64,000 nucleotides of DNA. It comes from Rhodospirillales bacterium. Lineage in GTDB: Bacteria > Pseudomonadota > Alphaproteobacteria > Rhodospirillales > JANQFP01. The position numbers and the translations under genes were made by a program. Positions 23,921-50,342 of this stretch are shown piece by piece; positions within the stretch are counted from its first letter, which is position 1, and every line of letters begins with the position of its first letter. The stretch is from contig JANQFP010000207.1 of NCBI GenBank assembly GCA_028277795.1, positions 83,804-147,803 of the forward strand. The letters run 5' to 3'. The notes under the pieces were generated by a model that worked only from the letters and a program-made list of their open reading frames with translations, did no database searches and was not told where the DNA came from.

Positions 23921-25165
23921 ATGACGGCCGGGCGCCAATTCCTACCCTACGGCCGCCAACTGGTCGAGGATGACGATGTGGCGGCCGTTGCGGCCGTCCT
24001 GCGCGGCGACTACTTGACGACGGGGCCGGCGGTGCGGAACTTCGAGGCCGCCCTGGCGGCGGCGACCGGTGCCGGTCACGCCGTCGCCTGTTCCAGTGGC
24101 ACCGCGGGACTGCATCTGGCCGCGATGGCCCTGGACATCGGCCCGGGCGATGGCGTGGTGGTCCCCGCGGTGACCTTCCTGGCAACAGCCAACGTGGTGC
24201 GCCACGTGGGTGCCGAGGTGATCTTCGCCGATGTCGATGCCGAAACCGGTTTGATGGGGCCGGCCGAACTGGCCGCCGCGATGGAGCGGGCGGGGGAGTT
24301 GGATATCAAGGCCGTCGTGCCCGTTCATCTGGCCGGCCAGTGTGCCGACCCGGAGGGGATCTGGATGATGGCGGTGGATCGGGGATTCCACGTGGTGGAC
24401 GACGCCTGCCACGCGCTCGGCACTCGCTATGGTGGCGCTGCCGTCCCGGTGGGCAGTTGCCGGCACGGTACCATGGCAACGTTCTCCTTTCATCCGGTCA
24501 AGACCATCACCATGGGGGAGGGCGGCGCGGTCACCACCAACGACCAGGCCATGGCCGAGCGCATGAGGCGATTGCGCAGCCACGGCATGGTGCGCGACGC
24601 GGCGATGTTCGAGAACACCGATTTGGCATTCGATGCCGGTGGGGCTGCCAATCCCTGGTACTACGAGATGCCGGAGGCTGGCCTCAATTACCGGGCCAGC
24701 GACATCCATTGCGCCCTCGGGCTGAGCCAGTTGCGCAAGTTGGACCGCTTCGTTGCCCGCCGCCGGGCGTTGGCGGACCGTTACGATGCGCTGCTGGCGC
24801 CCTTGGCCCCGGTGGTGCGTCCGCGTAAGCGGCCATCCGCATGTCGACCCGCATGGCACCTCTATGTGGTGCTTATCGATTTCGCGGCTGCGGGTACCAC
24901 CCGGGCGGAGGTCATGAATCGATTGCGCAACGACGGCATCGGGACCCAGGTCCATTACCTGCCGGTGCACCACCAACCGTATTACCGACGCCGTTACGGA
25001 CATCAGAACCTGCCCGGCTCTGAGGCCTACTATGAGCGCTGCCTCGCTCTGCCGCTGTTCCCGGGCATGGAGGACGGGGATGTGGATGGGGTCGTGAGCG
25101 CCCTCACCGAGATCTTGACCGGGAAACCCAGCGTCGGCGCTTCCACGCAACAGCGCGCCACTTAG
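23921..25165 (+). CDS. pseC: UDP-4-amino-4,6-dideoxy-N-acetyl-beta-L-altrosamine transaminase (DegT/DnrJ/EryC1 family, PseC-like)
   Basis: Start trimmed to ATG 23921 (MTAGRQFLPYGRQLVEDDDVAAVAAVLRGDYLTTGP...), a PseC-type N-terminus. PLP-Lys region FSFHPVKTIT. Co-located with pseB/G/I. Confidence 0.8.
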   Translation: MTAGRQFLPYGRQLVEDDDVAAVAAVLRGDYLTTGPAVRNFEAALAAATGAGHAVACSSGTAGLHLAAMALDIGPGDGVVVPAVTFLATANVVRHVGAEVIFADVDAETGLMGPAELAAAMERAGELDIKAVVPVHLAGQCADPEGIWMMAVDRGFHVVDDACHALGTRYGGAAVPVGSCRHGTMATFSFHPVKTITMGEGGAVTTNDQAMAERMRRLRSHGMVRDAAMFENTDLAFDAGGAANPWYYEMPEAGLNYRASDIHCALGLSQLRKLDRFVARRRALADRYDALLAPLAPVVRPRKRPSACRPAWHLYVVLIDFAAAGTTRAEVMNRLRNDGIGTQVHYLPVHHQPYYRRRYGHQNLPGSEAYYERCLALPLFPGMEDGDVDGVVSALTEILTGKPSVGASTQQRAT

Positions 25166-25180
25166 GGAAAACCGGGCATA

Positions 25181-26506
25181 GTGTCGCCCTTCAGGCCGGA
25201 ACCCGAGGCGGCGCCACGCGGCGGCCGCTATGCCCGCAGCGCGGCGTTGCTGCCACGGGCCGAACGGGTGATACCTCTCGGTTCCCAGACCTTTAGCAAG
25301 AGTCGAACCCAATACCCGGAAGGTGCCGCACCCCTATTCCTCGAACGCGGCCGTGGCGGTCGCGTGTGGGACGTCGACGGCAACGAATACGTGGATCTGG
25401 TGTGCGGTTTGCTCCCGGTGGTTCTCGGCTATTGCGATGCAGACGTAGACGCTGCGATAGGCGCGCAACTGCGGAACGGCATTACGTTCAGCTTGGCCAC
25501 CGAGTTGGAAATCGAGGTGGCTGAACGTCTGGTCGAGATCGTTCCATGCGCCGAGGCAGTGCGTTTCGGAAAGAACGGTACCGACGCGACGTCCGCTGCG
25601 GTTCGTCTGGCGCGGGCGTTCACCGGCCGCGACCACATCGCGGCGGCGGGCTATCACGGCTGGCAGGACTGGTACATCGGGGCCACGGCGCGCAAGAAGG
25701 GGGTGCCGGACGCGGTTGCCGGTCTCACCCACCTGTTTCCATACAATGATCTCCATGCGTTGGAGAGCTTGCTCTCCGCCCATCCCGGGGAGTTCGCCGC
25801 CGTGATCATGGAGCCAATGAACACGGAACAGCCGGCGGACGGGTATCTCCATGACGTTCGGGATATCACGCACCGGCACGGGGCGCTGCTGATCTTCGAC
25901 GAGATCATCACGGGTTTCCGGTACGCCCTTGGCGGGGCGCAGGAACACTTCGGAGTGGTGCCGGACTTGGCGGCGCTCGGCAAAGGTATGGCCAACGGCA
26001 TGCCGTTATCGGCCATCGTCGGGCGCGCCGACGTGATGGCGGAGATGGAGGAGGTCTTCTTTTCCGCCACCTTCGGCGGCGAGACGTTGTCATTGGCGGC
26101 GGCGGTTGCCACCATCGACAAGATGCGCCGAGAGCCGGTTATCGACACTTTGTGGGAAACGGGCACGGCCCTCACGCGCCGGGTTGAGGCGGCGATCGAA
26201 GCCCACGGGCTCGGCGAGGCGATCTCGCTCGCCGGGCTGCCACCCTGGCGGCTGTTCGTCTTCAATGGCGTCGGAGATGTGGATGGGGCTGTGATCAAGA
26301 CCTTCCTGATCCGGGAGATGCTGCGCGAAGGCGTGCTTGTCAACGTCAGCCACAACGTGTGTTACGCTCACACCGAGGGGGACGTCGAACACGTCGCGGG
26401 CGCCTACGATCGGGTTCTTCCCCGTTTGGCGGACGAACTCCAAACCCCCGGCTTGGCGGACCGCCTCGGCTGCCCGGCCATCCACCCGGTGTTCTCGGTG
26501 CGATAA
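25181..26506 (+). CDS. Class III aminotransferase (glutamate-1-semialdehyde 2,1-aminomutase-like)
   Basis: GTG start. RAERVIPLGSQTFSKS..., RFGKNGTDATSAAVRLAR, ALLIFDEIITGFR and LGKGMANGMPLSA (PLP Lys) are HemL-like motifs. It sits in a sugar locus, so it is probably not haem-related. Confidence 0.75.
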   Translation: MSPFRPEPEAAPRGGRYARSAALLPRAERVIPLGSQTFSKSRTQYPEGAAPLFLERGRGGRVWDVDGNEYVDLVCGLLPVVLGYCDADVDAAIGAQLRNGITFSLATELEIEVAERLVEIVPCAEAVRFGKNGTDATSAAVRLARAFTGRDHIAAAGYHGWQDWYIGATARKKGVPDAVAGLTHLFPYNDLHALESLLSAHPGEFAAVIMEPMNTEQPADGYLHDVRDITHRHGALLIFDEIITGFRYALGGAQEHFGVVPDLAALGKGMANGMPLSAIVGRADVMAEMEEVFFSATFGGETLSLAAAVATIDKMRREPVIDTLWETGTALTRRVEAAIEAHGLGEAISLAGLPPWRLFVFNGVGDVDGAVIKTFLIREMLREGVLVNVSHNVCYAHTEGDVEHVAGAYDRVLPRLADELQTPGLADRLGCPAIHPVFSVR

Positions 26507-26523
26507 GGCGTGGACGGCGCTTC

Positions 26524-28386: not shown

Positions 28387-28425
28387 GTCCGCGCACGCCG
28401 CTGCGGCGACGGAGGGGCTCCTGAG

Positions 28426-29406
28426 ATGCCGCTGAACGGCAAGTCGGTCCTGATCACCGGTGGCACTGGGTCTTTCGGCCGGCGGTTCATGGAACTGGTT
28501 CTGGCGCAACATCAGCCGAAGAAGCTGATCGTGTTCAGCCGCGACGAGCTGAAGCAGGACCACATGCGCCAAGCCTACGCGGCGGACGGAAACACGCCTG
28601 TCCGCTACTTCGTCGGCGACATCCGCGACAAGGAGCGGTTGCACCGTGCTTTCCATGACGTCGACGTGGTGATCCACGCGGCCGCGCTCAAGCAAGTGCC
28701 GGCGTGCGAGTACAACCCCTTCGAGGCGGTGCAGACCAACATCCTGGGAACCCGCAATGTCATCGACGCAGCCATCGACTGCGGCGTTAGAAGGGTCCTG
28801 GCGCTAAGCACGGACAAGGCTGTCAACCCGGTTAACCTCTACGGCGCCACCAAGTTGTGCGCCGAGAAGCTGGTGGTCCAGGGCAACTCCTATTCGAGCG
28901 TCGAGCGGACCCGCTTCAGCTGCGCCCGCTACGGCAACGTCGTCGGCAGCCGGGGCAGCGTCATCCCCCTGTTTCTCCGTCAGCGGATGAACGGTCGGGT
29001 GACCGTGACTGATCCGCGGATGACCCGGTTCTGGATCACCCTGGACCAGAGCGTGGCATTCATCATCCGGTGCCTGGACATGATGCAGGGCGGCGAGGTG
29101 TTCGTGCCCAGGATCCCGAGCATGGGCATCATGGACCTGATCGAAGCCGTGGCCCCGGACTGCGAGGTCGAAGCCATCGGCATTCGTCCGGGCGAGAAAA
29201 TCAACGAACTCCTGATTTCGCCGGATGAGGCACGGCATACATTCGATTTGGGCGACATGTACGTCATCTACCCGGCGTTCAAGGAATGGCACATGGACCT
29301 GCCGAAAGGGGCCCAGCCGTTGCCCGTCGATTTCGCCTACTCCAGCGACACCAACGACGACTGGCTGAGCCCGGCGCGTCTGCGCGAGCTCGTGGCCGAT
29401 CTTTGA
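28426..29406 (+). CDS. pseB: UDP-N-acetylglucosamine 4,6-dehydratase (inverting), PseB/FlaA1-like
   Basis: VLITGGTGSFG, FSRDELKQ, GDIRD, YGATKLCAEK (YxxxK), and a length of about 326 aa. The other pse genes are in the same locus. Confidence 0.8.
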   Translation: MPLNGKSVLITGGTGSFGRRFMELVLAQHQPKKLIVFSRDELKQDHMRQAYAADGNTPVRYFVGDIRDKERLHRAFHDVDVVIHAAALKQVPACEYNPFEAVQTNILGTRNVIDAAIDCGVRRVLALSTDKAVNPVNLYGATKLCAEKLVVQGNSYSSVERTRFSCARYGNVVGSRGSVIPLFLRQRMNGRVTVTDPRMTRFWITLDQSVAFIIRCLDMMQGGEVFVPRIPSMGIMDLIEAVAPDCEVEAIGIRPGEKINELLISPDEARHTFDLGDMYVIYPAFKEWHMDLPKGAQPLPVDFAYSSDTNDDWLSPARLRELVADL

Positions 29407-32697: not shown

Positions 32698-32704
32698 GCC
32701 GCTG

Positions 32705-39170: not shown

Positions 39171-40205
39171 GTGAAGGTGCGCAAGTTCCTGGTTATCGGT
39201 TGTGGGTCCATCGGCACCCGGCATATCGTCAACTTGCTGGCCCTCGGTGCCGGCGAGATCGTGGCCTACGACATCCGCCCGGATCGCCGGGACGCCGTCC
39301 GGGCCAATCACGGCATCGCCGTGGTCGACACGCTTGAAGAGGGCTGGGCCGCCAATCCGGATGTTGCCGTCATCGCGTCCGATTCCAACACCCACGTGGA
39401 GCTGGCCCTCCAGGCATTGCGCCGAGGATGCCACCTGTTCATCGAAAAGCCGCTGTCGCACAGCCTCGACGGCGTCGACCGGCTGGTCCGCACGGCGGCC
39501 GAGGCCCAGCGCGTCGTTCTCGTAGGCTGCAACCTTCGTTTCAACCCCGGCCTGATCCACGTCAAGGCGCTGATCGGCGCCGGTGCCGTGGGTCGCGTCG
39601 CCGCCGCCCGTGCGGAGACGGGACAATACCTTCCCGATTGGCATCCCGAGCAGGACTACCGGACCGAGTACAGCGCGAGTCGGGAGAGAGGGGGCGGCGT
39701 GTTGCTCGATTCCGCCACCCACGAAATTGACTACCTGCGCTGGATGCTGGGCGATGTCGTGCGGGTGTCGTGTTTCCACGGCCATCTCAGCCATCTCAGG
39801 ACCGATACCGAAGATACGGCGGCGATTCTGCTCAGGTTCGCCTCCGGGGCCATCGGCGAGGTGCACGTCGACTACGTTCAACGGGTGTTTAGTCGGTCAC
39901 TGCACGTGATCGGTGATGAAGGGACCATCCGCTGGGACCATGACGCCAGCGAAGTGCGGTGGTACACGGCGGCGACACAACGGTGGCAACGCTTCGAAAA
40001 CCCGCCGGGTTGGCAACGGAACCAAAGCTTCGTGGACGAGATGGCGCATTTCGTCCGTTGCATAGCCGGCGAAGAACAGCCGGCCCAGGACTTGGTGGCG
40101 GCGGCGGACCTCCTCGCTATTGCCCTCGCCGCCCGGGAGGGCGGTGACTCGGCCGGTATCGAAACCCATTGGCAGCGTGACAGAAGGCGAGCGAGCGGTG
40201 GCTGA
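39171..40205 (+). CDS. Gfo/Idh/MocA-family NAD(P)-dependent oxidoreductase 1
   Basis: FLVIGCGSIGTRH Rossmann motif, LFIEKPL (the EKP motif) and the C-terminal GFO_IDH_MocA_C-like domain. Confidence 0.8.
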   Translation: MKVRKFLVIGCGSIGTRHIVNLLALGAGEIVAYDIRPDRRDAVRANHGIAVVDTLEEGWAANPDVAVIASDSNTHVELALQALRRGCHLFIEKPLSHSLDGVDRLVRTAAEAQRVVLVGCNLRFNPGLIHVKALIGAGAVGRVAAARAETGQYLPDWHPEQDYRTEYSASRERGGGVLLDSATHEIDYLRWMLGDVVRVSCFHGHLSHLRTDTEDTAAILLRFASGAIGEVHVDYVQRVFSRSLHVIGDEGTIRWDHDASEVRWYTAATQRWQRFENPPGWQRNQSFVDEMAHFVRCIAGEEQPAQDLVAAADLLAIALAAREGGDSAGIETHWQRDRRRASGG

Positions 40206-41289
40206 CAGGGTGCGATTGGGGTCGCGGCCTTGCGGTGACGGCGAGCCCTGCTGGATCGTCTTCGAAATCGGGGCCACCCACGACGGGGTGGACACGGCCC
40301 GCCGCCTTATCGACCACGCAGCGGAAGCCGGTGCCGATGCCGTCAAGTTCCAGATGATCGACCCGGACCGGCTCGTTGCCCGCCGGGAGATGACCTATAC
40401 CTACACGGTCCTCGCCGACCGCGAGACCGGGGCGACAGACACGGTGACCGAGCGCCAGTACGATATCCTGGCCCGCCGCGCCCTCGCTGCCGACGAGTGG
40501 GCCGTGCTCAAGCGCCATGCCGACGCTCTCGGCCTGGCGTTCTTTCTCACCGTCTTCTGGGACGACGAGATCGAGTTGGCGCGCGAACTCGGGTGTCAGT
40601 CCCTCAAGATCGCGTCCGGCGACGTGAACACGCTGCCGTTCATTCGGCGCGCCGCCCGCTCGGGGCTGTGCATCCAGCTCGACACCGGCAACGCCAGCCT
40701 GGGCGAGATCGAGGCCGCCGTCGACGTCATTCGGTCGGAGGGTAACAAGGACATCATCATCCACCAGTGTCCATCCGGATATCCGGCCCGCCTGGACGGG
40801 ATCAATCTCAGGGTCGTTCGGACCCTCAAGCAGATGTTCCACTGTCCGGCGGCCTTCTCCGATCACAGCCCGGGCTGGGACATGGACGTGGCGGCGGTCG
40901 CACTGGGCGCGAACCTGGTGGAAAAGACGGTGACTCTGGACCGGACGACGCGCAGCGTCGAGCACATCATGTCTCTGGAGCCGCCCGAGATGAAGCAGTT
41001 CGTGCGGCTGATCCGCTCGGTTGAAACAGCCTTGGGCGCGCCACGCCGTATCCTTAAACCGGAGGAAAGGGAGAGCCGTCTCCAGTTCCGGCGGAGTGCA
41101 TACTTGGCCGAGCCGGCCCGGCGCGACCAGAAAGTGAGCGACGTCGCGGTGATCTTCCGCCGCCCCGGGGACGGCATCGGCGGCGATGTCTATGAGACCC
41201 TGGTAGACCACAGGTTCCGCGAGGACCTGTCCGCCGGGCACCGGCTGTCCCTCGCCGACCTGCGTGATCCTGAGGGGGACACGACCTAA
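40198..41289 (+). CDS. Divergent NeuB/SpsE-family sugar-phosphoenolpyruvate condensing synthase (second paralog)
   Basis: TIM-barrel NeuB-like core (CWIVFEIGATHDGVDTARRLIDHAAEAGADAVKFQ, SLKIASGDV, FSDHSPG) plus a C-terminal SAF-like domain. The canonical NHNG motif is replaced by THDG. GTG 40198 overlaps the upstream stop. Confidence 0.7.
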   Translation: MADRVRLGSRPCGDGEPCWIVFEIGATHDGVDTARRLIDHAAEAGADAVKFQMIDPDRLVARREMTYTYTVLADRETGATDTVTERQYDILARRALAADEWAVLKRHADALGLAFFLTVFWDDEIELARELGCQSLKIASGDVNTLPFIRRAARSGLCIQLDTGNASLGEIEAAVDVIRSEGNKDIIIHQCPSGYPARLDGINLRVVRTLKQMFHCPAAFSDHSPGWDMDVAAVALGANLVEKTVTLDRTTRSVEHIMSLEPPEMKQFVRLIRSVETALGAPRRILKPEERESRLQFRRSAYLAEPARRDQKVSDVAVIFRRPGDGIGGDVYETLVDHRFREDLSAGHRLSLADLRDPEGDTT

Positions 41290-41972
41290 TGAGGCGGTGG
41301 GCGGTCATTCCGGCCCGCGGTGGCTCGAAGCGTCTGCCCGGCAAGAACATCCTTCTGGTTCAGGGCCGCCCGATGATGGCTTCGACGATCGAGGCAGCGT
41401 ATGGCACTGACTTGTTCGAGCGTGTCATCGTATCAACCGAGGATCCCGAGATCGCCAAGGTCGCGGCCCGCTGCGGGGCCGAGGTGAGCCAGCGGCCCGA
41501 AGCGCTGGCCACCGATACGGCGTCAACGGTCGACGTGATGATCGACTTGCTGGACCGTGAGCCCGGTGGCGCGGACTGCGACATCCTGTGCACGCTTCTG
41601 GCCACCGCGCTGCTGAGGGGCGTCGAGGACATCCGCGGCGTGGTCGAACTGATCGAGCCCGGACAGTGCAACTTCTCCCTGGCGGTGACGACGTATTGGT
41701 TCCCTCCCTACCAGGCCTTGTGGCGCGACGCCGCGGGGGTGTTGACCCCCATGTGGCCGGAGTTGATCGACGCCCGGACCCAGGAGTTCGCCCACCTGCG
41801 GGTGGACAACGGCAGCACCTACGCGGCGTGGATCCCGGCGTTTCGGGAGGAGCGGACCTACTACGGCCGCGGCCTGAGGGGTTACGAGATGCCGCGGCTG
41901 AGGTCGGTGGACATCGACCTGCCGGAAGACCTGAGGCTTGCTGAAATCCTCATGGACGCCGAGACGCTGTGA
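41289..41972 (+). CDS. pseF: Acylneuraminate/pseudaminate cytidylyltransferase (CMP-nonulosonate synthetase)
   Basis: WAVIPARGGSKRLPGKNI N-terminus of the NeuA/PseF family. It is the only cytidylyltransferase in the window. TAATG overlap with the upstream gene. Confidence 0.7.
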   Translation: MRRWAVIPARGGSKRLPGKNILLVQGRPMMASTIEAAYGTDLFERVIVSTEDPEIAKVAARCGAEVSQRPEALATDTASTVDVMIDLLDREPGGADCDILCTLLATALLRGVEDIRGVVELIEPGQCNFSLAVTTYWFPPYQALWRDAAGVLTPMWPELIDARTQEFAHLRVDNGSTYAAWIPAFREERTYYGRGLRGYEMPRLRSVDIDLPEDLRLAEILMDAETL

Positions 41973-43009
41973 AGATTCTGGTGGTCGGCTGCGGCTCCAT
42001 CGGCCAACGCTACGCCCGATTGACAGCGGCGCGGGCAGAGTGCGCGGTGGTCGATGTCGATCCGGCAAGGGCTAATGCTTGCGCCGACGAGGCCAACGTC
42101 CGGGCCTGGACCGATCTTGCCTCCGCCCTCGCATGGTGTCCTGATGGAGTGGTGGTGGCGACGCCCCCGGCGAGCCACCTTGCGGTGGCAGGACAGGCTA
42201 TCGCCGCAGGCGCGAGCGTCCTCGTCGAGAAGCCCGTCTCGAGTACCGTCGACGGGGTTGCCGACTTGTGTGACCAGGCCCAGTCGCGCGGGCGGCAGGT
42301 CTACGGCGTCTGCAATATGCGATTCCACCCCGGTGTGGCGACGCTGCGCAATCGTTTATCCGATGTCGGAAGGCCCCTGTTTGCGCGGGCTTGGTTCGGC
42401 AGTTTCCTGCCCGACATGCGTCCCGGCGTGGACCATCGGAAATTGGAGTGCGCGCAAGCGGGGTACGGCGGTGTCATCCTGGACAACGTCCACGAATTCG
42501 ATTACCTGACTTGGCTTTTCGGGCCGGTGGTTGAGGTCCGTGCCGCCGCCGAAAGGATCGGTGACCTGGGCATCGAGTCCACGGACACCGCGTGGATTTG
42601 GGTCCGCCATGCCTCGGGCGTCCATTCCGAAATCCATCTTGATTACCTGCAGCGTCGCAAGCGGCGCGGCTGTGAGGTCGTCGGCACCAATGGCACACTG
42701 GTGTGGGGGAGCGAGGGCAAGCGGCCCGAGCGATGCGTGGTGCGGCTCTACCGGGCCGGCAGCGAGGACACGCATACGGTGTTTGCCACCGATGCGGTCG
42801 ATGCGGACCAGCCGTTCGCCGAGATGATGGACGGCTTCCTTGACGGCATCGGCGGTTCGCATGTGTCTCTGGCCTCTGGTCTCGATGGTGCGCATGTCCT
42901 GCGTGCGGCTCTCGCCGCCTGCGAGGCCGCGGAGACGGGTCGTTCCGTGGTGCTGGCCACCGCCGTGGATGGGCCAATGCCCGGGCCGAGCCGGTGGGCG
43001 TCCGGGTGA
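41969..43009 (+). CDS. Gfo/Idh/MocA-family NAD(P)-dependent oxidoreductase 2
   Basis: MKILVVGCGSIGQRY, VLVEKPV. Paralogous in layout to 39171-40205. GTGA overlap with the upstream stop. Confidence 0.8.
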   Translation: MKILVVGCGSIGQRYARLTAARAECAVVDVDPARANACADEANVRAWTDLASALAWCPDGVVVATPPASHLAVAGQAIAAGASVLVEKPVSSTVDGVADLCDQAQSRGRQVYGVCNMRFHPGVATLRNRLSDVGRPLFARAWFGSFLPDMRPGVDHRKLECAQAGYGGVILDNVHEFDYLTWLFGPVVEVRAAAERIGDLGIESTDTAWIWVRHASGVHSEIHLDYLQRRKRRGCEVVGTNGTLVWGSEGKRPERCVVRLYRAGSEDTHTVFATDAVDADQPFAEMMDGFLDGIGGSHVSLASGLDGAHVLRAALAACEAAETGRSVVLATAVDGPMPGPSRWASG

Positions 43010-43013
43010 GCCC

Positions 43014-44021
43014 GTGCGGGCCTTCTTTCGCGCAGACGCCTCGCCGGAGCTTGGCGGCGGCCATATCATGCGGTGCTTGGCGTTGGCTGATGGCTTGGCC
43101 GTGCGAGGATGGCAGTGTACGTTCGGCTGCAATGCGACGGCCGCGGATGTCGCGCCGGGCTTGGCACGGCACCTCGTCGGCATTGCCGACGATAGCGGGC
43201 ACCCTCCTCTTCACAACGGTGATCTGCAGTGGGACCTAGCAGTCGTCGACCACTACGGCCTTGATGGCGCGTACGAGAGCTGCCTGCGTGCCCACTGCGA
43301 ACGGATCATGGTGATCGATGACCTCCACAACAGGTCCCATGATTGTGATGTTTTGCTCGACCAAACTCCGGGCCGTCAGATCGCGGACTACCAACCCTTG
43401 GTCCCCGGCCATTGCCGGCTTTTGTTGGGATCGGCGTATGCCTTGCTGCGGCCGGAATTCGCGATCGCACGGACGGCGGCGTCGGATGCGAGGGGGGAAG
43501 CTCGCGGCGTACGGCGCATATTCGTCGCTTTCGGGGCGACCGACCCGTTCAACCTGACGCGCAAAGCGTTGGAGGGAATAGCTTTGTCCGGCGTTGACGC
43601 AGATGTCGATGTGGTCCTTGGGCAGGCGGCGCCGCACCTGGATGACGTACGCGAGCGGGCCGAGCGGCTGCCGGTGAGAGCAACGGTTCACGTAGCCCCC
43701 AACAACTTCGTCTCCCTCATGGCCACGGCCGATATCGCCTTCGGGGCGCCGGGCAGCATGTCTTGGGAGCGCTGTTGCCTTGGAATTCCCTCGGTGGTCG
43801 TTGCCTTCGCCGCCAACCAAGTCGAGATCGCCGGCGCGTTGGAGCGGGTCGGTGCAGCGATCCATCTCGGCTGGCACGAAGCAGTAGGGTCGCGCCAGTT
43901 CGCCGAGGTCCTGGTGGGGCTGGCCGGCGACACTAAGACCTTGATCCGTATGGCGACGGCTGCGGTCAAAGTGTCCGACGGGCGGGGCGTCCAACGGGTC
44001 GTGGAGGTACTTGCCCCATGA
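43014..44021 (+). CDS. pseG: UDP-2,4-diacetamido-2,4,6-trideoxy-beta-L-altropyranose hydrolase
   Basis: FRADASPELGGGHIMRCLALADGL is the characteristic PseG N-terminus. GT28-like C-terminal domain. GTG 43014 chosen as start. Confidence 0.8.
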   Translation: MRAFFRADASPELGGGHIMRCLALADGLAVRGWQCTFGCNATAADVAPGLARHLVGIADDSGHPPLHNGDLQWDLAVVDHYGLDGAYESCLRAHCERIMVIDDLHNRSHDCDVLLDQTPGRQIADYQPLVPGHCRLLLGSAYALLRPEFAIARTAASDARGEARGVRRIFVAFGATDPFNLTRKALEGIALSGVDADVDVVLGQAAPHLDDVRERAERLPVRATVHVAPNNFVSLMATADIAFGAPGSMSWERCCLGIPSVVVAFAANQVEIAGALERVGAAIHLGWHEAVGSRQFAEVLVGLAGDTKTLIRMATAAVKVSDGRGVQRVVEVLAP

Positions 44022-45253
44022 CCTCAGTGCCGGAATGGTGGCGCAAACCGCGCCGGGTTGCAGTCGTCATCGACAACCCGAGCTGGATCCTGCAATTTGG
44101 CCGTCGGCTTGTCGCGGAGGCCAACGCTGGCGGCGACCGGGCGGTGTTGTGCCGCGAACACCGGGAAATTCCAAATGGCGAGGTCGCGTTCTACCTCGGT
44201 TGCATCCATATGTCGCCGCCGGACGTTCTCGCCCGCAACCGGCGCAACTTGGTTGTCCACGAGAGCGACCTTCCCAAAGGACGGGGGTTCTCCCCGCTCA
44301 CATGGCAAGTCCTCGAAGGCATCAACCAAGTGCCAGTCTGTTTGTTGGAGGCAGAACAGGAGGCCGACTCCGGACCGGTTGTCTATCGCGAGCAGCTGAA
44401 CTTCGCCGGCCACGAGCTCGTCGATGAGATGCGCGAGATACTTGGAGAGATGACGCTTCGCCTGTGCCATCGCTTTCTCGACGAGCTGTCCCCGCCGCTC
44501 GGCAAGCCGCAAGATGGCCAACACACATGGTTCTCCCGCCGCCGTCCTCCCGACAGCCGGTTGGATCCCGACCTTACCATCGCCGAGCAGTTCAATCTCC
44601 TGCGGGTCGTGGACAATGTCCGCTATCCAGCGTTCTTCGAACACCGTGGCCACCTATACAGGTTGCTGATCGAAAAGATGCTTGGCGACCCCGCCGAATG
44701 GTCGATTGATTTCGATCCTGACGAGACGGCGTCAGAAGCCGTCAAGTCGAACGCCGTTTTCGACCCCACCGGACCTACCTTGATCGCCCACGACGGGGGT
44801 GTAGTCATGCTGCGACCGGCAGTCGAACGTGATGGGGTGCACCTCCTCGCATGGCAGCACTACGACTTGACACGACAGCATTTCCGCCAGCCAACCAAAC
44901 CGACGGAGTCCGAACATTGGCGGTGGTTTCGGCGCTGCCTGCTCGACCCCAACCGGCACCTGAATATCATCCTCTATAACTGGCAACGCGCCGGGGCGCT
45001 GCGTCTCGATCGCATCGACGTCAACACTTTGGAGGTCTCGATCCACGTGGCGCCGCACTTCTACCGGCGTGGCATCGCCACCGCGGCACTCAACCTGGCT
45101 CGCGAACTGTGGGCCGACGACATCTTGAAGGCGGAGGTGTTGCCGGCCAATGCCGCCTCCCACGCGTTGTTCTGGAAATGCGGTTATTTGCCACAAACGA
45201 ACAAGATCTATCTCAACATCCCGGACCGCCTTCGCGAGGTCAGCCATGGTTGA
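44018..45253 (+). CDS. Fusion protein: formyltransferase-fold N-domain plus GNAT N-acetyltransferase C-domain (PseH-like)
   Basis: N-domain has HESDLPKGRGFSPL (compare the Fmt HxSLLPxxRG motif). C-domain has a GNAT signature (VAPHFYRRGIATAALNLA..., ANAASHALFWKCGY). ATGA overlap with pseG. Confidence 0.7.
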   Translation: MTSVPEWWRKPRRVAVVIDNPSWILQFGRRLVAEANAGGDRAVLCREHREIPNGEVAFYLGCIHMSPPDVLARNRRNLVVHESDLPKGRGFSPLTWQVLEGINQVPVCLLEAEQEADSGPVVYREQLNFAGHELVDEMREILGEMTLRLCHRFLDELSPPLGKPQDGQHTWFSRRRPPDSRLDPDLTIAEQFNLLRVVDNVRYPAFFEHRGHLYRLLIEKMLGDPAEWSIDFDPDETASEAVKSNAVFDPTGPTLIAHDGGVVMLRPAVERDGVHLLAWQHYDLTRQHFRQPTKPTESEHWRWFRRCLLDPNRHLNIILYNWQRAGALRLDRIDVNTLEVSIHVAPHFYRRGIATAALNLARELWADDILKAEVLPANAASHALFWKCGYLPQTNKIYLNIPDRLREVSHG

Positions 45254-45968
45254 CGGGGTGACGCAGAGAGGCGCCGGAGCCTCCGGGCGCACCTACGTCA
45301 TCGCAACGATCAAGCCTTGGAACGTGGAGGCCTTTCACGCTTTTACGCCGAAGATGCCGGGGCGTTGGATCCTTGTCGATCGCCCTGAGGACCTTTGCCT
45401 GGAGACCATCCAAGCGCATCAGCCGCGGTACGTTTTCTTCCCGCACTGGTCGTGGAAAGTCGCCGAGGAAATTCTGGCGGCGGCTGAGTGCGTTTGCTTC
45501 CACATGACCGATCTACCCTTCGGTCGCGGCGGAAGTCCGCTACAGAACCTCATCGTGCGGGGCCACACCGAAACCATGCTCACGGCCTTACGCATGGTGA
45601 CGGCACTCGATGCCGGGCCGGTCTACCTCAAGCGTCCGCTCGGCCTGGCGGGGCGTGCACAAGACATCTACGAACGCGCGGCCCGACTGTCCTACGACAT
45701 GATTCAGGAAATGATCACCACCGAGCCCGAGCCGACGCCGCAAAGCGGTGAACCGACCGTCTTTTCCCGGCGCGCACCGGATCAGAGCGCCATGCCCACA
45801 GTGGGGGGGTTGCCCCGGCTCTACGACCACATCCGAATGTTGGATGCGGAGACCTACCCGCGCGCGTTCCTCGATCATGGTGACTTCCGTCTGGAATTTG
45901 GCAGCCCGACGTTGGGCGAAGACGGAGTCCTCAGAGCCATGGTCGAGATCCGGTCCAATTCCGACTGA
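45246..45968 (+). CDS. Formyltransferase-fold protein (FlmC/WbqC-like, stand-alone)
   Basis: About 240 aa. FHMTDLPFGRGGSPLQNLI corresponds to the Fmt-type HxxxLPxxRG loop. 8-nt overlap with the upstream gene. Confidence 0.65.
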   Translation: MVDGVTQRGAGASGRTYVIATIKPWNVEAFHAFTPKMPGRWILVDRPEDLCLETIQAHQPRYVFFPHWSWKVAEEILAAAECVCFHMTDLPFGRGGSPLQNLIVRGHTETMLTALRMVTALDAGPVYLKRPLGLAGRAQDIYERAARLSYDMIQEMITTEPEPTPQSGEPTVFSRRAPDQSAMPTVGGLPRLYDHIRMLDAETYPRAFLDHGDFRLEFGSPTLGEDGVLRAMVEIRSNSD

Positions 45969-45972
45969 CGAG

Positions 45973-46674
45973 ATGATGATGGCGCGAAGGGTCCTAGTGG
46001 TCGCCGCCCACCCCGATGACGAAGTCCTGGGCTGCGGCGGGACCCTGGCCCGGCACGTTGCCAGCGGTGCGGTGGTTCAGGCCATCTTCCTTGCCGATGG
46101 GGTCGGCGCACGCGGGGGGGACGTCGCCGCGGCTATGGCCACACGCCGCGAGGCCGCGCACGCCGCGGCGGACATCCTCGGCACCCTGCCCCCGATGTTT
46201 CTCGGATTTCCCGACAACCGTATGGATGGAACGCCGCTTCTCGATGTCATCCAACGGGTCGAAGAGGTTGCCGCGGCGTTCGGGCCTGACGTGGTCTACA
46301 CGCACCATGGCGGCGACTTGAATGTCGATCATCGGATTGCCCTCCAGGCCACCGTGACGGCGTTTCGTCCGCTGCCCGGTGGCGGCGTGCGTGCGATCTA
46401 CACCTTCGAGGTGCCATCGAGCACCGAGTGGGGGACGCGCGATACCGACCGCGCGTTCGATCCGGTGCGTTTTGTCGACATCCGTGACGTGCTGTCGGTC
46501 AAGATCCGCGCCTTGGCGTGCTATGGGGACGAGGTGCGGCCGTTTCCCCACCCGCGTTCCCCGAGAGGCGTGGAGGCGCTGGCCACGGTGCGCGGCACGG
46601 TCGTGTGTCTGGAGGCAGCCGAGGCGTTCGGCGTCGTACGCCAAGTGGTGCCGTGGAACGCCGGCGATGAGTGA
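45973..46674 (+). CDS. PIG-L/LmbE-family N-acetyl-sugar deacetylase
   Basis: VLVVAAHPDDEVLGCGGTLA (AHPDDE motif) and HGGDLNVDH (HxxH zinc site). Confidence 0.85.
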   Translation: MMMARRVLVVAAHPDDEVLGCGGTLARHVASGAVVQAIFLADGVGARGGDVAAAMATRREAAHAAADILGTLPPMFLGFPDNRMDGTPLLDVIQRVEEVAAAFGPDVVYTHHGGDLNVDHRIALQATVTAFRPLPGGGVRAIYTFEVPSSTEWGTRDTDRAFDPVRFVDIRDVLSVKIRALACYGDEVRPFPHPRSPRGVEALATVRGTVVCLEAAEAFGVVRQVVPWNAGDE

Positions 46675-47722
46675 TCGCACCATGACCATCGGCGACCAGC
46701 CAATCGGCGCGGGCGCATCTCCGTTCGTGGTCGCCGAGCTTTCGGGCAACCACAACGGCGACCTCGGGCGCGCCCTGGCCCTCATGGAGGCGGCCAAGGA
46801 GGCCGGGGCCGACGCGGTCAAGCTGCAGACCTATACCCCGGACACCATGACCATAGATTGCGACCGGCCCGAGTTCCGCGTCACCGGCGGCCTATGGGAC
46901 GGATACACGCTCTATGACCTCTACCGGTGGGCTCACACGCCATGGGATTGGCATGAACCGCTGTTCGCCAAGGGCCACGACCTCGGCATCACCGTGTTCA
47001 GCACGCCGTTCGACGCCAGCGCGGTGGACTTCCTGGAGCAATTCGATCCGCCCGCCTACAAGATCGCGTCGTTCGAGAACACAGACTTAGCGCTGGTCAC
47101 GCGGGTCGTCGCCACCGGGCGCCCCGTGATTGTCTCCACCGGCATGGCGAGCTTGCGCGAGCTTGACGATCTGGTGCAGACGGCGCGCCAAGCGGGGTGC
47201 CGGGACCTGGCGTTGCTCCACTGCGTCAGCGCCTACCCGGCGCGGTCCGAGGAAGCCAACTTGCGGACCATACCCCATCTGGCCGAGGCGTTTCAGGCGG
47301 TGGTCGGCCTATCGGACCACACGCCCGGTACCGCCGTGGCGGTGGTGGCCATCGCCCTCGGCGCCGCCGTCGTGGAGAAGCACCTGACCCTCAATCGTGC
47401 CGATGGTGGGCCGGACGCCGCCTTTTCCCTGGAGCCCGACGAGCTGGCCGCCCTAGTCGCCGGTTGCCGGGACGCTCACGCCGCCTTAGGGAAGGTTAGC
47501 TATGAGAGAACAAGAAGCGAGGAGGGGAGTGTGATCTTCCGCAGGTCGGTGTTCGCGGTCGCAGACATCGCCAAGGGCGAGCCTTTCACCGAACGCAACT
47601 TGCGCGCCATACGCCCCGGCCACGGGCTCGCGCCACGGCACCTCGCGGACGTCATCGGCCGCCATGCCACCCGACCGGTCGCGCGGGGCGAGCCCTTGCG
47701 TTGGGATGCGGTCGGCGAGTAG
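46667..47722 (+). CDS. pseI: Pseudaminic acid synthase
   Basis: PFVVAELSGNHNGDLGRALALMEAAKEAGADAVKLQTY, YKIASFE, LHCVSAYP, LSDHTPG, and a C-terminal SAF domain. Canonical PseI-like sequence. Confidence 0.85.
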   Translation: MSDRTMTIGDQPIGAGASPFVVAELSGNHNGDLGRALALMEAAKEAGADAVKLQTYTPDTMTIDCDRPEFRVTGGLWDGYTLYDLYRWAHTPWDWHEPLFAKGHDLGITVFSTPFDASAVDFLEQFDPPAYKIASFENTDLALVTRVVATGRPVIVSTGMASLRELDDLVQTARQAGCRDLALLHCVSAYPARSEEANLRTIPHLAEAFQAVVGLSDHTPGTAVAVVAIALGAAVVEKHLTLNRADGGPDAAFSLEPDELAALVAGCRDAHAALGKVSYERTRSEEGSVIFRRSVFAVADIAKGEPFTERNLRAIRPGHGLAPRHLADVIGRHATRPVARGEPLRWDAVGE

Positions 47723-47745: not shown

Positions 47746-48945
47746 ATGACCGAGCCACCGTTACGGACCTGCACACGGTGCGTCATGCCGGAAACGGCTG
47801 AATCGCTGGCGTTCGACGATGACGGCGTCTGTTCGGTTTGTCATCAAATCGACCACAAGCAAACGGCGATCGACTGGGCCGAGCGCGAGCGAGATATGGA
47901 CGCGCTGTTGGAAGAGCACCGCGGGCGCCACGACTACGACTGCATCGTGCCGTTCTCGGGCGGCAAGGACTCCACATTCACCCTCTGGTACCTGGTCCGC
48001 GAGAAGGGGCTCAAACCCTTGGTCGCGCGGTTCGATCACGGGTTCTTCCGGCCGCGGGTGAATGAAAACGCCCAACGGACGTTCCGTAAACTGGGCGTGG
48101 ACGTGCACCAGTTCACACCCAATAAGGAAGTGGTGCGCAAGCTCATGTTCGAGTCCCTGCGTCGCCGGGGCGACTTCTGCTGGCACTGCCACACGGGCAT
48201 CTTCTCGTATCCCATGTGGGTGGCGTTGGAGAAAGGTGTGCCGCTCCTGTTTTGGGGCGAGCCGGGCGCCGAGTATTCGTCGTTCTACGGGTACGACGAA
48301 GAGGAGCTGGCCGACGAGAAGCGGTTCAACCGCAAGATCAATCTCGGCATCAACGCCGAGGACATGCTGGGCATGCTCGACAACAGCGTGTCTGACTATC
48401 GGGTGACGGCGCGCGACCTGAAGCCGTTCACGTTCCCGCCGACGGCAGAGCTTCGGCGGCGCAATGTTCGTTCGGTGTTCCTCGGCGCTTACGTTCCTTG
48501 GGACGTGAAGAAGCAGGTTGAGATCATCAAACGGGAGTTGGGATGGCAGGGCGACGAGGTCGAAGGCGTCCCCCCAGCGTACGACTACGAAAAGATCGAG
48601 TGTTTCATGCAGGGCGTACGCGACTACATCAAGTTCCTGAAGCGGGGATTTGGGCGCACCACCCACCTATGCGCCATCGACATCCGCAACGGCCGGCTCA
48701 CGCGCGACGAGGCCATTCGCCTTGTGCAAACCTATGACGGCCGGCGGCCCGCTGCCCTCGATGTGTTCTTAGGATATCTGGGGATCTCCGAGCACGAGTT
48801 CATGCAGCTGATGGCGCCACACGTGGTGGCGCCGCACCGCATGCCGTCGGTCGACGAAATCCCGCGAGTCAATGCCGCGCCGTGGGACTTCGACCAGTGG
48901 CCGCGGATGGATGGGAATTCCAGGTGTGGCCCGAAGGTTCGGTAG
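47746..48945 (+). CDS. N-acetyl sugar amidotransferase (PP-loop, WbuX/PseA/LfnA family)
   Basis: CTRCVMPET...DDDGVCSVC zinc-ribbon N-terminus and PP-loop VPFSGGKDST. SD ggaggagga lies before ATG 47746. Confidence 0.8.
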   Translation: MTEPPLRTCTRCVMPETAESLAFDDDGVCSVCHQIDHKQTAIDWAERERDMDALLEEHRGRHDYDCIVPFSGGKDSTFTLWYLVREKGLKPLVARFDHGFFRPRVNENAQRTFRKLGVDVHQFTPNKEVVRKLMFESLRRRGDFCWHCHTGIFSYPMWVALEKGVPLLFWGEPGAEYSSFYGYDEEELADEKRFNRKINLGINAEDMLGMLDNSVSDYRVTARDLKPFTFPPTAELRRRNVRSVFLGAYVPWDVKKQVEIIKRELGWQGDEVEGVPPAYDYEKIECFMQGVRDYIKFLKRGFGRTTHLCAIDIRNGRLTRDEAIRLVQTYDGRRPAALDVFLGYLGISEHEFMQLMAPHVVAPHRMPSVDEIPRVNAAPWDFDQWPRMDGNSRCGPKVR

Positions 48946-48958
48946 CGCCTGAGGCGTT

Positions 48959-49588
48959 GTGCGTGTCATTGTCGTCGACTACGGCGCCGGGAACGTCGAA
49001 TCGGTCCGCCGGGCCGTCTGGCTGGCCGGCTTCGATCCGGAGATCTCGTCGGCGCCGGAGGAGGTGTTGGCCGCCGACCGGATCATCCTTCCGGGCGTCG
49101 GGGCGGCGGGGCGAGCCGTCGCGGCGCTCCGTGCCCGGGGGCTCGACGAGGCGCTCGACGAAGCGGTGTGCCGGCGCGGCCGTCCTATGTTGGGGATCTG
49201 CCTCGGCATGCAATTGCTGGCCGAGACGTTGTACGAGTTCGGGTGCCATCGGGGGCTGGGGTGGATCCCGGGATCCGTGGTCCCGATGCGTGACGTGATC
49301 GGGGATGGGCTCCGTGTCCCGCACATGGGATGGAACAGCGTCACCGCCACCGATACCGGTGCGATGTTCTTCCCCGGCAGCCGCGAGCCCGGCCATTTCT
49401 ATTTCGCCCACTCCTACGCCCTCGACGTCCGGCCGGAGGACCCGATAGCGGCCGCGACCGTGATATATGGCAGGACGATGGTGGCGGCTGTCCGGTGGAA
49501 CGCTGTGTTCGCCACCCAGTTCCACCCGGAAAAGAGCCAGGACAGCGGCGAAAGGCTTTTGGGGGCGTTTTTCGACTGGGCGCCATGA
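48959..49588 (+). CDS. Glutamine amidotransferase, HisH paralog (WbuY-like)
   Basis: VIVVDYGAGNV, GICLGMQLL (catalytic Cys), HMGWN, FYFAHSY, QFHPEKS. Confidence 0.85.
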   Translation: MRVIVVDYGAGNVESVRRAVWLAGFDPEISSAPEEVLAADRIILPGVGAAGRAVAALRARGLDEALDEAVCRRGRPMLGICLGMQLLAETLYEFGCHRGLGWIPGSVVPMRDVIGDGLRVPHMGWNSVTATDTGAMFFPGSREPGHFYFAHSYALDVRPEDPIAAATVIYGRTMVAAVRWNAVFATQFHPEKSQDSGERLLGAFFDWAP

Positions 49589-49589
49589 C

Positions 49590-50342
49590 GTGCTCACGCA
49601 GCGCCTGATCCCCGGCCTCCTCCTGCGAGGCGGGCGCTTGGCGAAGGGAGAGCGGTTCGCGTCGTACCAGGACGCCGGCCTGCCCCATACCACCGCCCGC
49701 GCCTACATCGCACAGGGCGCCGACGAGATCCTGCTGCTTGACGTGGACGCATCGCGGGTGGGGCGCGGGCCCGATCTGGATGCCGTTCGGGCGGTGGCGG
49801 CCGAGTGCCAGGTGCCTCTGACCGTCGGCGGCGGCATACGCACGGTGGCGGACGGGCACGCCTGCATGGCTGCGGGCGCCGACAAGTTGTGCGTGACCAT
49901 GACGGCCCTGGACCGGTCGGACCTGATCACGGAGCTGGCGGAGATTTTTGGCAGTCAGGCAGTCGTTCTCGGGATCGACGTGCTGACCGACGATGGTGCG
50001 CGCCGGCTCTACGACCATCGAAATGGCGACATGGTCGGCCGGGATCCCCTAGCGTGGGCGCGTGACGGTATTGCACGGGGGGCCGGCGAGATCCGTCTGA
50101 TGGCCGTCGACCGCGAAGGCACGCGTCGCGGCATGGATCTTGACCTGCTCGAAGCGGTCCGCCACGCTGTCCAGGTGCCGATCGTTCTCGAAGGAGGGGC
50201 CGGAACACTGGAGCACCTGGATGCCGCGTTCGCGGCCGGCGCCGATGGCGTCGCCGTCGGCACCATGCTGGTGTTCTCCGACAACAACCTAGTGAAGATC
50301 AAACGCTACCTGGCCGACCGCGGCCGCAACGTGCGGGCGTGA
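49590..50342 (+). CDS. Cyclase/ammonia-channel subunit, HisF paralog (WbuZ-like)
   Basis: RLIPGLLLRGGRLAKG, DEILLLDVDAS, LTVGGGIRT, and GADGVAVGTMLVF at the C-terminus. GTG 49590 lies 2 nt after the hisH-like stop. Confidence 0.8.
   Translation: MLTQRLIPGLLLRGGRLAKGERFASYQDAGLPHTTARAYIAQGADEILLLDVDASRVGRGPDLDAVRAVAAECQVPLTVGGGIRTVADGHACMAAGADKLCVTMTALDRSDLITELAEIFGSQAVVLGIDVLTDDGARRLYDHRNGDMVGRDPLAWARDGIARGAGEIRLMAVDREGTRRGMDLDLLEAVRHAVQVPIVLEGGAGTLEHLDAAFAAGADGVAVGTMLVFSDNNLVKIKRYLADRGRNVRA

Follow-up and report, generated by a model that had tools for sequence, protein, structure and literature searches.

Organization of the Locus

The DNA analyzed here, a 64-kb stretch of a Rhodospirillales bacterium contig (JANQFP010000207.1; referred to as the window), is a polysaccharide locus with a high GC content (~66%) and nearly all transcription on the + strand. 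Between positions 39171 and 43009 it encodes a Gfo/Idh/MocA oxidoreductase (Gfo1), a divergent NeuB-family synthase (referred to as NeuBL), a PseF-like cytidylyltransferase, and a second Gfo/Idh/MocA oxidoreductase (Gfo2), in that order and surrounded by enzymes of pseudaminic acid (Pse) biosynthesis. A preliminary description of the same DNA had suggested, from the tight coupling of these genes, a second ulosonic acid, or a modified condensation substrate, that shares a single enzyme of cytidine monophosphate (CMP) activation. All four open reading frames (ORFs) lie on the + strand, with the boundaries given in that description:

39171..40205, + strand: Gfo1, a Gfo/Idh/MocA NAD(P) oxidoreductase (Pfam; GCGSIG and EKP motifs) with a large orthologous group of its own
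40198..41289, + strand: NeuBL, a divergent NeuB-family synthase with a TIM barrel and a C-terminal SAF-like domain (Pfam; AlphaFold2 model)
41289..41972, + strand: PseF-like CMP-ulosonic-acid cytidylyltransferase, the window's sole copy (TIGR03584, 171.8 bits; PDB 6IFD)
41969..43009, + strand: Gfo2, a second oxidoreductase of the Gfo/Idh/MocA family (Pfam), whose orthologs come after the cytidylyltransferase in other NeuBL loci

Pfam recognizes Gfo/Idh/MocA domains in the first and last of these proteins, a NeuB domain in the second, and a CTP_transf_3 domain in the third. The genes overlap by 8 nucleotides (Gfo1/NeuBL), 1 nucleotide (NeuBL/cytidylyltransferase), and 4 nucleotides (cytidylyltransferase/Gfo2), in agreement with the tight coupling by overlapping stop and start codons noted previously. 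An independent public assembly holds an identical NeuBL within the same series of four gene calls (342, 363, 227, and 346 amino acids). The score of the cytidylyltransferase on the PseF equivalog spans the full model and lies below its cut-off of 205.7 bits, and the best PDB match of this protein, 6IFD, has been described as the CMP-Pse synthetase PseF of A. caviae (PMC13656337). A tblastn search with the same protein found no second cytidylyltransferase in the 64 kb, which bears out its earlier designation as the only one present.

A NeuB Subfamily with an Altered Active Site

NeuBL is neither an ordinary PseI, LegI, or NeuB ortholog nor a decayed copy of one, and instead belongs to a large monophyletic subfamily of NeuB proteins. 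Its place in the NeuB family is clear from the PF03102 match (residues 37-281, 217.5 bits against a cut-off of 22.1), and the gene carries, at 40261-40287, the motif FEIGATHDG noted in the preliminary description. Its scores fall below the curated cut-offs of both the NeuB/LegI equivalog TIGR03569 (242.7 versus 399.65 bits) and the PseI equivalog TIGR03586 (200.6 versus 340.25 bits), its identity to the window's own PseI is 31-32%, and that to solved NeuB-family structures reaches at most about 30%. In a neighbor-joining tree of 103 NeuB-family sequences, NeuBL and its relatives form one monophyletic clade on a long branch, and the canonical genes co-located with them group with C. jejuni PseI. 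Scoring against hidden Markov models and phylogenetic placement, which the preliminary description had put forward as a check, thus set NeuBL apart from ordinary orthologs; together with the lack of any match to Epimerase_2 (NeuC/LegG-type) or CBS-NTP_transferase (PtmE-type) among the window ORFs scanned, they rule out an ordinary LegI or NeuB ortholog.

The subfamily is well populated. A search of 5.8 billion proteins returned at least 120 NeuBL clusters at 59-68% identity, named only as 'N-acetylneuraminate synthase family protein' or by automatic SpsE/LegI labels, and identity among the metagenome relatives drops sharply from 51-62% to no more than 47%. Among named carriers, Thalassospira and Pelagibius come nearest (57-58% identity), and Thalassospira aquimaris FZY0004 (NZ_JARSBO010000001.1, ~365.4-386.5 kb) is a cultured carrier of NeuBL, a Gfo gene, and the class-III aminotransferase AT3 considered below. 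Deep-branching NeuBL-like genes with 35-42% identity and the same active-site signature were also seen in three loci (L025, L026, and L027), where an APH-type kinase gene comes next instead of a cytidylyltransferase and WbuX/HisF genes lie near.

The active site was compared by alignment with N. meningitidis NeuB (whose numbering is used below), C. jejuni PseI, B. subtilis SpsE, and Leptospira NeuB. Every aligned member of the subfamily is altered at the same five positions, namely N29T, E134D, S154D, H236T (rarely serine), and D247E, corresponding to T27, D142, D162, T244, and E255 of NeuBL itself. F112, conserved elsewhere, and the PseI-typical W74 are also absent, and the equivalents of E25, K53, Q55, T110, K129, S132, S213, H215, E234, and R314 are retained. 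Threonine or serine at position 236 with glutamate at 247 was found in all 22 loci ORFs at least 50% identical to NeuBL and in 4 deeper relatives; H236 and D247 are kept in all other NeuB-family sequences covering these positions (76 loci ORFs and five references, i.e., the four enzymes above and the window's own PseI). The best 150 representatives, at 50% identity, of a 1.84-billion-protein library included 144 that were informative, and D154 occurred together with E247 in 53 of these, none with a histidine at 236.

Both H215 and H236 are metal-binding (manganese) histidines in N. meningitidis NeuB (PMC11339185). NeuBL keeps the former as H223 and has T244 in place of the latter, a position filled across the family by threonine, serine, proline, asparagine, or valine and never by histidine. 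A histidine at the H248 column was considered as a compensating metal ligand and rejected, being common in canonical members as well. S154, the third residue of the signature, presumably contacts the phosphate of phosphoenolpyruvate (PEP) in the N. meningitidis enzyme. Among the proposed catalytic residues E25, E134, and E234 (PMC8208679), the first and last persist as E23 and E242 and the second has become aspartate (D142), so that the catalytic acids are counted as retained. The same replacement of E134 is found in archaeal and eukaryotic synthases as well as in 29% of NeuB sequences from the environment; the large-scale NeuB phylogeny of 2021 that reported this also noted the absence of SAF domains from environmental sequences, and H236 is never mentioned there (PMC8208679).

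A model of NeuBL computed with AlphaFold2 (mean predicted local distance difference test score 91.9) has a TIM barrel and a C-terminal domain, with residues 66-86 forming an additional beta-hairpin, and finds its best structural match in C. jejuni PseI (8H2C) (Foldseek template modeling score 0.73-0.79). The Pfam SAF model reaches E ≤ 0.001 for some homologs and misses it for the window's NeuBL, but profile alignment to 1XUU and 8H2C extends to the C-terminus with an arginine in the R314 column, and the C-terminal domain of the model is folded, so a SAF-type domain is taken to be present. In characterized enzymes, R314 of this antifreeze-like domain enters the active site of the partner subunit, where it holds the sugar's N-acetyl group in position (PMC6795526).

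The preliminary description had held that loss of metal- or PEP-binding residues would point to an inactive paralog. One metal histidine and the presumed phosphate-binding serine have indeed been replaced, but the unusual residues are invariant throughout a large family (50-68% identity) in which the remaining catalytic set is intact; this argues against a decaying or inactive paralog and for altered catalysis. Although one metal histidine is gone, the pattern in these alignments appears to be one of conserved re-engineering.

Genomic Context of NeuBL

Around the four genes, the window encodes enzymes of the Pse pathway and several accessory proteins:

23747..25165, + strand: PseC, the UDP-4-amino-4,6-dideoxy-L-AltNAc transaminase (TIGR03588, 487.2 bits, above 423.5); its true start is probably downstream of 23747
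25166..26506, + strand: AT3, a class-III aminotransferase dependent on pyridoxal phosphate (PLP) and resembling glutamate-1-semialdehyde (GSA) aminomutase (Aminotran_3; PRK06209, 392.5 bits, below the cut-off of 486)
28387..29406, + strand: PseB, the inverting UDP-GlcNAc 4,6-dehydratase (TIGR03589, 475.9 bits, above 407.75)
43014..44021, + strand: PseG, the UDP-sugar hydrolase (TIGR03590, 251.4 bits, above 153.55), with a GTG start 4 nucleotides past the Gfo2 stop
44018..46674, + strand: N-acyl tailoring block (a formyltransferase-like plus GNAT protein, a Formyl_trans_C_2 protein, and a PIG-L deacetylase)
46667..47722, + strand: canonical PseI (NeuB and SAF domains) with every reference active-site residue (PseI equivalog, 489.4 bits, above 340.25)
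47746..50342, + strand: WbuX/HisH/HisF-type acetamidino-forming amidotransferase trio (WbuX, 347 bits, above 203.2; HisH and WbuZ-like matches)

PseB, PseC, PseG, and PseI all exceed their curated equivalog cut-offs, and PseI carries the motif AELSGNHNGD, in line with its earlier identification as the canonical synthase. No PseH equivalog was found in the window, where the PseH model scores 20.8 and 32 bits against a cut-off of 93.1 and only GNAT/formyltransferase-like proteins are present.

About 25 independent NeuBL loci were examined, with the next gene counted over 23 of them and the presence of PseI over the 16 with sufficient flanking sequence. The recurrent order is pseB-pseC-NeuBL-cytidylyltransferase, then Gfo-AT3 and/or HisH-HisF-WbuX, then pseG, a set of acyl/formyl transferases and PIG-L, and finally pseI. 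A cytidylyltransferase is the next recognizable gene after NeuBL in 16 of the 23 loci, and PseC lies directly upstream in 11. A PseI-type gene accompanies NeuBL in 13 of the 16 well-flanked loci; two of the three exceptions end within the cluster, and the third, L012, has a partner NeuB homolog in which E134 is replaced by tyrosine and H30 by phenylalanine. This gene (L012, 13778-15088; 38% identity) is not a canonical PseI and may be inactive or another variant. Since the usual order of a Pse operon is pseB-pseC-pseF-pseG-pseH-pseI, NeuBL seems to have been inserted after pseC and before pseF, and its tight coupling to the sole cytidylyltransferase would largely reflect that position.

Between NeuBL and PseI, the closest relative (L091, 68% identity) keeps almost the same gene order as the window, and the N-acyl tailoring block is syntenic in L091, L010, and L005. 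The acetamidino trio occurs in 9 other NeuBL loci and is missing from L003, L010, and L095, so that an obligatory link between it and NeuBL is ruled out; an obligatory link with B12-dependent radical-SAM enzymes is likewise ruled out, as such a gene is found only in the window and L091. The Gfo-NeuBL-cytidylyltransferase-Gfo arrangement of the window was not found in any other examined locus, and the survey proposed in the preliminary description therefore gave no example of it as a conserved four-gene unit. Only pieces of it recur, namely NeuBL-cytidylyltransferase-Gfo-AT3, NeuBL-Gfo in L095, and one Gfo1-NeuBL fusion.

Three fusion proteins tie NeuBL to other activities. In P0161 (564 amino acids) a CTP_transf_3 cytidylyltransferase is joined to NeuBL and its SAF domain, which supports a direct pathway link between the two enzymes. 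P0135 (704 amino acids) combines a Gfo1-type oxidoreductase with NeuBL, each half being 57% identical to the window proteins, and P0140 (632 amino acids, from a low-GC organism) combines NeuBL with an aldo/keto reductase. The latter two are read as pathway-level fusions, although, with Gfo1 and NeuBL overlapping by 8 nucleotides in the window, P0135 might also be a gene call merged by a frameshift.

An Accessory Module of Oxidoreductase, Cytidylyltransferase, and Aminotransferase

Gfo1 and Gfo2 both match PF01408, PF22725, and PF02894 and both contain GCGSIG and EKP motifs. They are paralogs, as had been proposed, but at 33% identity they are distant ones. Gfo1 belongs to an orthologous group of at least 120 homolog clusters at 54-63% identity from several phyla. 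Three Gfo1-type contexts read pseB-pseC-Gfo-cytidylyltransferase-AT3-pseG-...-pseI, all without NeuBL, and in two of them the transferase and AT3 form one protein of ~688 amino acids. Gfo2 shares 45-55% identity with the Gfo of L091, L094, L095, and L008, where this ortholog follows the cytidylyltransferase and is itself followed by AT3, and 35-36% with that of L010 and L006; a class-III aminotransferase is present in the clusters of all six. L095 is the second locus with two Gfo genes, and the window is unusual in carrying both Gfo types.

Because Gfo1-type genes accompany the cytidylyltransferase and AT3 in clusters lacking NeuBL, the combination of Gfo, cytidylyltransferase, and AT3 is, judged by its distribution, a widespread accessory module of Pse clusters that is independent of NeuBL. 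The earlier grouping of oxidoreductase, NeuBL, transferase, and oxidoreductase as one functional unit is accordingly not upheld. It also left out the aminotransferase partner: the window's AT3 sits 15 kb upstream of the Gfo and cytidylyltransferase genes, adjoining pseC, and appears from its relatives elsewhere to be the displaced partner of their module. CTP_transf_3-AT3 fusions of ~680 amino acids make up 54 of the 119 closest AT3 homologs (62-77% identity), a fusion type that appears to be undescribed. Single-protein examples are found at L098 9077-11140 and L100 9020-11086 and among proteins P0415-P0523.

AT3 carries an LGK motif that matches the PLP-lysine motif of GSA aminomutases. Among its relatives is the PDB entry 6HBS, named an aminopentol aminotransferase and presumably FumI, which would act on a CH3-CH(NH2)- group. 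GSA-like class-III transaminases handle methyl ketones. The nearest solved structure to Gfo1 is 3EZY, with YjhC also among its matches, and WbpB (3O9Z) is among those of Gfo2. Both YjhC and RgNanOx are Gfo/Idh/MocA enzymes that act at C4 of sialic acid.

Proposed Pathway and Alternative Explanations

The window is best described as a variant Pse operon to which two independent accessory modules, NeuBL and the set of Gfo1, Gfo2, and AT3, have been added around a PseF-like cytidylyltransferase. The substrates and products named below are predictions that build on the gene identities, the NeuBL subfamily and its signature, synteny, and fusions. There is about an even chance that NeuBL is a second synthase that accepts a different aldose and yields a product for CMP activation. 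It would condense a variant of the PseG product, arising from the shared PseB, PseC, and PseG steps and substituted differently from the PseI substrate, and the adjacent transferase would then activate the resulting ulosonic acid. Retention of the R314 equivalent suggests that a 2-acylamino aldose is probably still bound, as is probably the PEP carboxylate, given that K53, K129, and T110 are kept. By contrast, the rebuilt pocket for the metal, the phosphate, and the distal part of the sugar (H236T, S154D, D247E, N29T, loss of F112 and W74, and the extra beta-hairpin) points to a substrate other than that of PseI. The part of the preliminary description that invoked a second ulosonic acid or modified substrate with shared CMP activation consequently fits the conservation of NeuBL, its co-occurrence with PseI, and its linkage and fusion to the cytidylyltransferase, whereas the oxidoreductase bracket does not belong to the NeuBL unit.

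A more specific and rather doubtful suggestion is that the NeuBL substrate bears a cationic nitrogen at C4, as a free amine or amidine, and that the enzyme depends less, or possibly not at all, on a divalent metal. Such a nitrogen is favored by the position of NeuBL after pseC, the loss of conserved aromatic residues, the gain or lengthening of acidic ones, and the loss of a metal ligand.

In the other module, a Gfo enzyme would convert one secondary hydroxyl of the CMP-nonulosonate into a ketone, which AT3 would transaminate to an amine, giving a triamino Pse-type sugar. C8 is the most likely site, since oxidation there yields a methyl ketone, as proposed for ElaA acting on CMP-legionaminic acid, and C4 is the alternative. 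The second Gfo may act at another position or reduce the ketone to an epimer. The fusion of AT3 to the cytidylyltransferase suggests a CMP-sugar as the substrate or a step coupled directly to activation. ElaA is itself a Gfo/Idh/MocA enzyme adjoining the CMP-legionaminic acid synthetase ElaB, for which oxidation of the C8 hydroxyl of CMP-Leg5,7Ac2, followed by re-reduction by a short-chain dehydrogenase/reductase (SDR), has been proposed (PMC13656337). An 8-amino-3,5,7,8,9-pentadeoxy-manno-nonulosonic acid occurs in the O-antigen of Tenacibaculum maritimum, with its genes unassigned (PMC3210612).

Several points weigh against this scheme. The loss of H236 together with an aspartate at the presumed phosphate-binding serine could mean that NeuBL no longer uses PEP, and its occurrence in clusters such as L003, with neither the amidotransferase nor Gfo/AT3, implies that no single tailoring step explains its presence. 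The need for a second synthase is weakened by C. jejuni PseI, which is reported to be promiscuous for N-acyl variants already (PMC13576459). This promiscuity and the L003-type clusters are the chief objections to the cationic substrate favored above. The position oxidized by Gfo may be C8 or C4, and the stage that of the CMP-sugar or of the free sugar; the ElaA assignment used as a guide rests on genetics, structure, and docking rather than on an assay (PMC13656337). Finally, of the loci seen, only the one in this genome has the four-gene bracket.

One alternative, that NeuBL is a redundant PseI isozyme making the same Pse5Ac7Ac from 2,4-diacetamido-2,4,6-trideoxy-L-altrose, perhaps with other regulation or kinetics, is considered improbable. 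NeuBL does share its operon and upstream enzymes with PseI and has C. jejuni PseI as its best structural match, and in L012, where the partner homolog lacks both E134 and H30, it may be the working synthase. The two proteins are nevertheless less than one-third identical, at least 53 clusters at 50% identity share without exception the same five or six changes in the active site, one of them at a metal ligand, and most well-covered loci (13 of 16) keep a canonical PseI beside NeuBL. Simple redundancy is seldom maintained so widely. An assignment as LegI or NeuB, with the cluster making legionaminic acid (Leg) or Neu5Ac besides Pse by known routes, is very improbable: the slightly higher score on the NeuB/LegI model than on the PseI model, the label 'N,N'-diacetyllegionaminate synthase' attached to some relatives, and a PtmE-like CBS-nucleotidyltransferase near NeuBL in L001 speak for it, but the score is far under the curated cut-off, the clade is separate with a non-canonical active site, no NeuC/LegG- or PtmE-type gene was seen among the window ORFs scanned, and the site where NeuBL is inserted, between pseC and pseF, is that of a Pse operon.

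A departure from PEP condensation toward another reaction of the Pse pathway (a pyruvate-dependent or reversible aldol reaction, use of an iminium electrophile, or binding of a CMP-sugar) in company with the fused or adjacent oxidoreductases is unlikely, if less easily dismissed. H236T and S154D strike both the metal site (PMC11339185) and the presumed phosphate site, and NeuBL is fused to a Gfo1-type oxidoreductase in P0135 and to an aldo/keto reductase in P0140. Yet all ten of the retained catalytic and binding residues listed above are still in place, the fusion and adjacency to the cytidylyltransferase fit a 2-ulosonic acid product, and the oxidoreductase links are explained by the separate Gfo/cytidylyltransferase/AT3 module, which is also found without NeuBL. 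For the module itself, the two Gfo enzymes might instead be an oxidase/reductase pair that epimerizes one carbinol center of CMP-Pse to give 8-epi- or 4-epi-Pse and no amino sugar. This is possible though not favored: ElaABC provides a precedent, with a cytidylyltransferase, a Gfo oxidase, and a reductase at C8 of CMP-Leg (PMC13656337), and two Gfo paralogs occur in the window and in L095, but either Gfo type can accompany AT3 and the transferase without the other, roughly half of the close AT3 homologs are fused to the transferase, and the window has an AT3 gene.

Returning to NeuBL as a second synthase, its boldest extension, to which we give a low probability, makes it a branch of the NeuB/KDO8PS/DAHPS superfamily with a new mechanism, in which a cation of the sugar (ammonium, amidinium, or iminium) replaces the lost metal and an undescribed CMP-ulosonic acid is formed; with the Gfo/aminotransferase module and two cobalamin radical-SAM enzymes, this could be a route to triamino and/or chain-extended (C10) ulosonic acids. 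C10 ulosonic acids that are CMP-activated and bear an additional amine and an O-acetyl group have been detected by mass spectrometry in Magnetospirillum gryphiswaldense, with the genes unassigned (bioRxiv 10.64898/2026.04.20.719630).

Neighboring Genes

The two B12-binding radical-SAM proteins are encoded within the Pse cluster at 29563-31095 and 34013-35518; their best matches are of the BchE/ApyD/HpnJ/PhpK type, far under the cut-offs, and they could be cobalamin radical-SAM C-methylases that extend the sugar chain. In L091, a 695-amino-acid B12/radical-SAM gene lies directly upstream of NeuBL. Between the two genes of the window, at 31150-33841, an MBOAT/DltB-like membrane O-acyltransferase, with a DltB score of 172 bits that lies under the cut-off, precedes a 392-amino-acid protein with no family match, possibly an O-acetylation or D-alanylation pair for the polysaccharide. 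The gene directly upstream of Gfo1 (37739-39136) shows weak matches to a BFO_1060-family glycosyltransferase domain, presumably named after a Tannerella forsythia locus tag, and to Glyphos_transf; it may encode a CMP-nonulosonate transferase or a polymerase. An AAC(3)-like N-acetyltransferase and a DUF4910/DUF2172 aminopeptidase-like protein with a winged helix-turn-helix domain are encoded at 35635-37742, and a second DUF4910 protein at 51932-53302; a 'putative aminopeptidase' also figures in the cluster list of L. pneumophila serogroups 6/12 (PMC3694923).

A half-size HepA/MsbA-like ABC exporter at ~26500-28386, also seen in L001, L003, L010, L091, and L096, may export or flip the glycan. 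Farther upstream, at 8615-18862, lies an exosortase-type exopolysaccharide system comprising Poly_export/SLBB and Wzz/GNVR proteins, a ParA-like ATPase, a fusion of EpsH exosortase with DUF3485, and two asparagine-synthase homologs. On account of this system, the Pse-type sugar is probably destined for an exopolysaccharide or capsule rather than for flagellin. At 54001-56000, between a minus-strand gene for a 453-amino-acid protein with no family match and an epimerase/dehydratase gene, the GC content falls to 0.537 against ~0.65 in the neighboring sequence; this segment may be intergenic or recently acquired.

Wider Significance

Nonulosonic acids such as Pse and Leg decorate flagella, capsules, and exopolysaccharides and shape immune recognition, phage attack, and surface charge, and the enzymes that make them serve in the production of vaccine antigens and glycoconjugates. 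Current annotation and pathway prediction sort every NeuB homolog as PseI, LegI, or NeuB, to which NeuBL adds a large and environmentally widespread fourth group. Because the site of this group is rebuilt and it stands beside a normal PseI, many Pse clusters may make products outside current schemes. The Gfo/cytidylyltransferase/AT3 module is in turn a genetic candidate for the formation of amino-substituted nonulosonic acids, among them the 8-amino sugar found in Tenacibaculum maritimum, a fish pathogen, and bears on the unexplained CMP-ulosonic acids of Magnetospirillum.

Comparison with Known Systems

All the kinds of genes involved are known. Undescribed in the searchable literature are a NeuB subfamily without the second metal histidine beside PseI, the often fused module of Gfo, cytidylyltransferase, and class-III aminotransferase, and the combination of the two; no description of a second NeuB in Pse clusters or of a Gfo/class-III aminotransferase module was found there, save for an uncommented gene list of L. 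pneumophila serogroups 6/12 from 2013, considered below.

With PseI (C. jejuni 8H2C, TIGR03586), NeuBL shares the fold, the two-domain layout, the operon context, and the equivalents of E25, K53, Q55, K129, H215, E234, and R314. It differs in sequence (~27-32% identity), in the H236T, S154D, D247E, N29T, and E134D replacements, in the absence of W74 and F112, in the longer beta-hairpin at 66-86, and in being encoded in addition to a true PseI. Compared with NeuB/LegI (N. meningitidis NeuB 1XUU, TIGR03569), it has in common the NeuB family, the PEP-carboxylate residues, and the SAF arginine, but scores well short of the equivalog, lacks one of the two manganese-binding histidines, and has no NeuC/LegG partner among the ORFs scanned.

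Pairs of an oxidoreductase and an aminotransferase that turn a sugar hydroxyl into an amine are well known, as in WbpB/WbpE and GnnA/GnnB, which act on UDP-sugars, and KdnB/KdnA, which produces Kdo8N. The same logic of NAD(P)-dependent oxidation, to a ketone or an aldehyde, followed by PLP-dependent transamination would apply to Gfo and AT3. The aminotransferases of those pairs, however, are DegT-type or act on octulosonate, whereas AT3 is GSA-aminomutase-like and linked to CMP activation.

The ElaA-ElaB-ElaC system of A. baumannii KL49 and Vibrio vulnificus likewise has a cytidylyltransferase adjoining a Gfo/Idh/MocA oxidoreductase (PMC13656337). ElaA and Gfo1 share 3EZY as their nearest solved structure, and they are alike in family and in lying next to a cytidylyltransferase gene. 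An SDR reductase and Leg characterize that system, in contrast to the class-III aminotransferase, often fused to the transferase, and Pse found here. The O-antigen gene list of L. pneumophila serogroups 6/12 comprises PseG, a 'glutamate-1-semialdehyde aminomutase', an acylneuraminate cytidylyltransferase, HisF/HisH, an aldo/keto reductase, DegT, CapD, and NeuB (PMC3694923). Its oxidoreductase is thus an aldo/keto reductase instead of a Gfo enzyme, and the arrangement is listed there without function or comment, but the set matches the AT3, transferase, and oxidoreductase module of the window and places it in a cultured pathogen.

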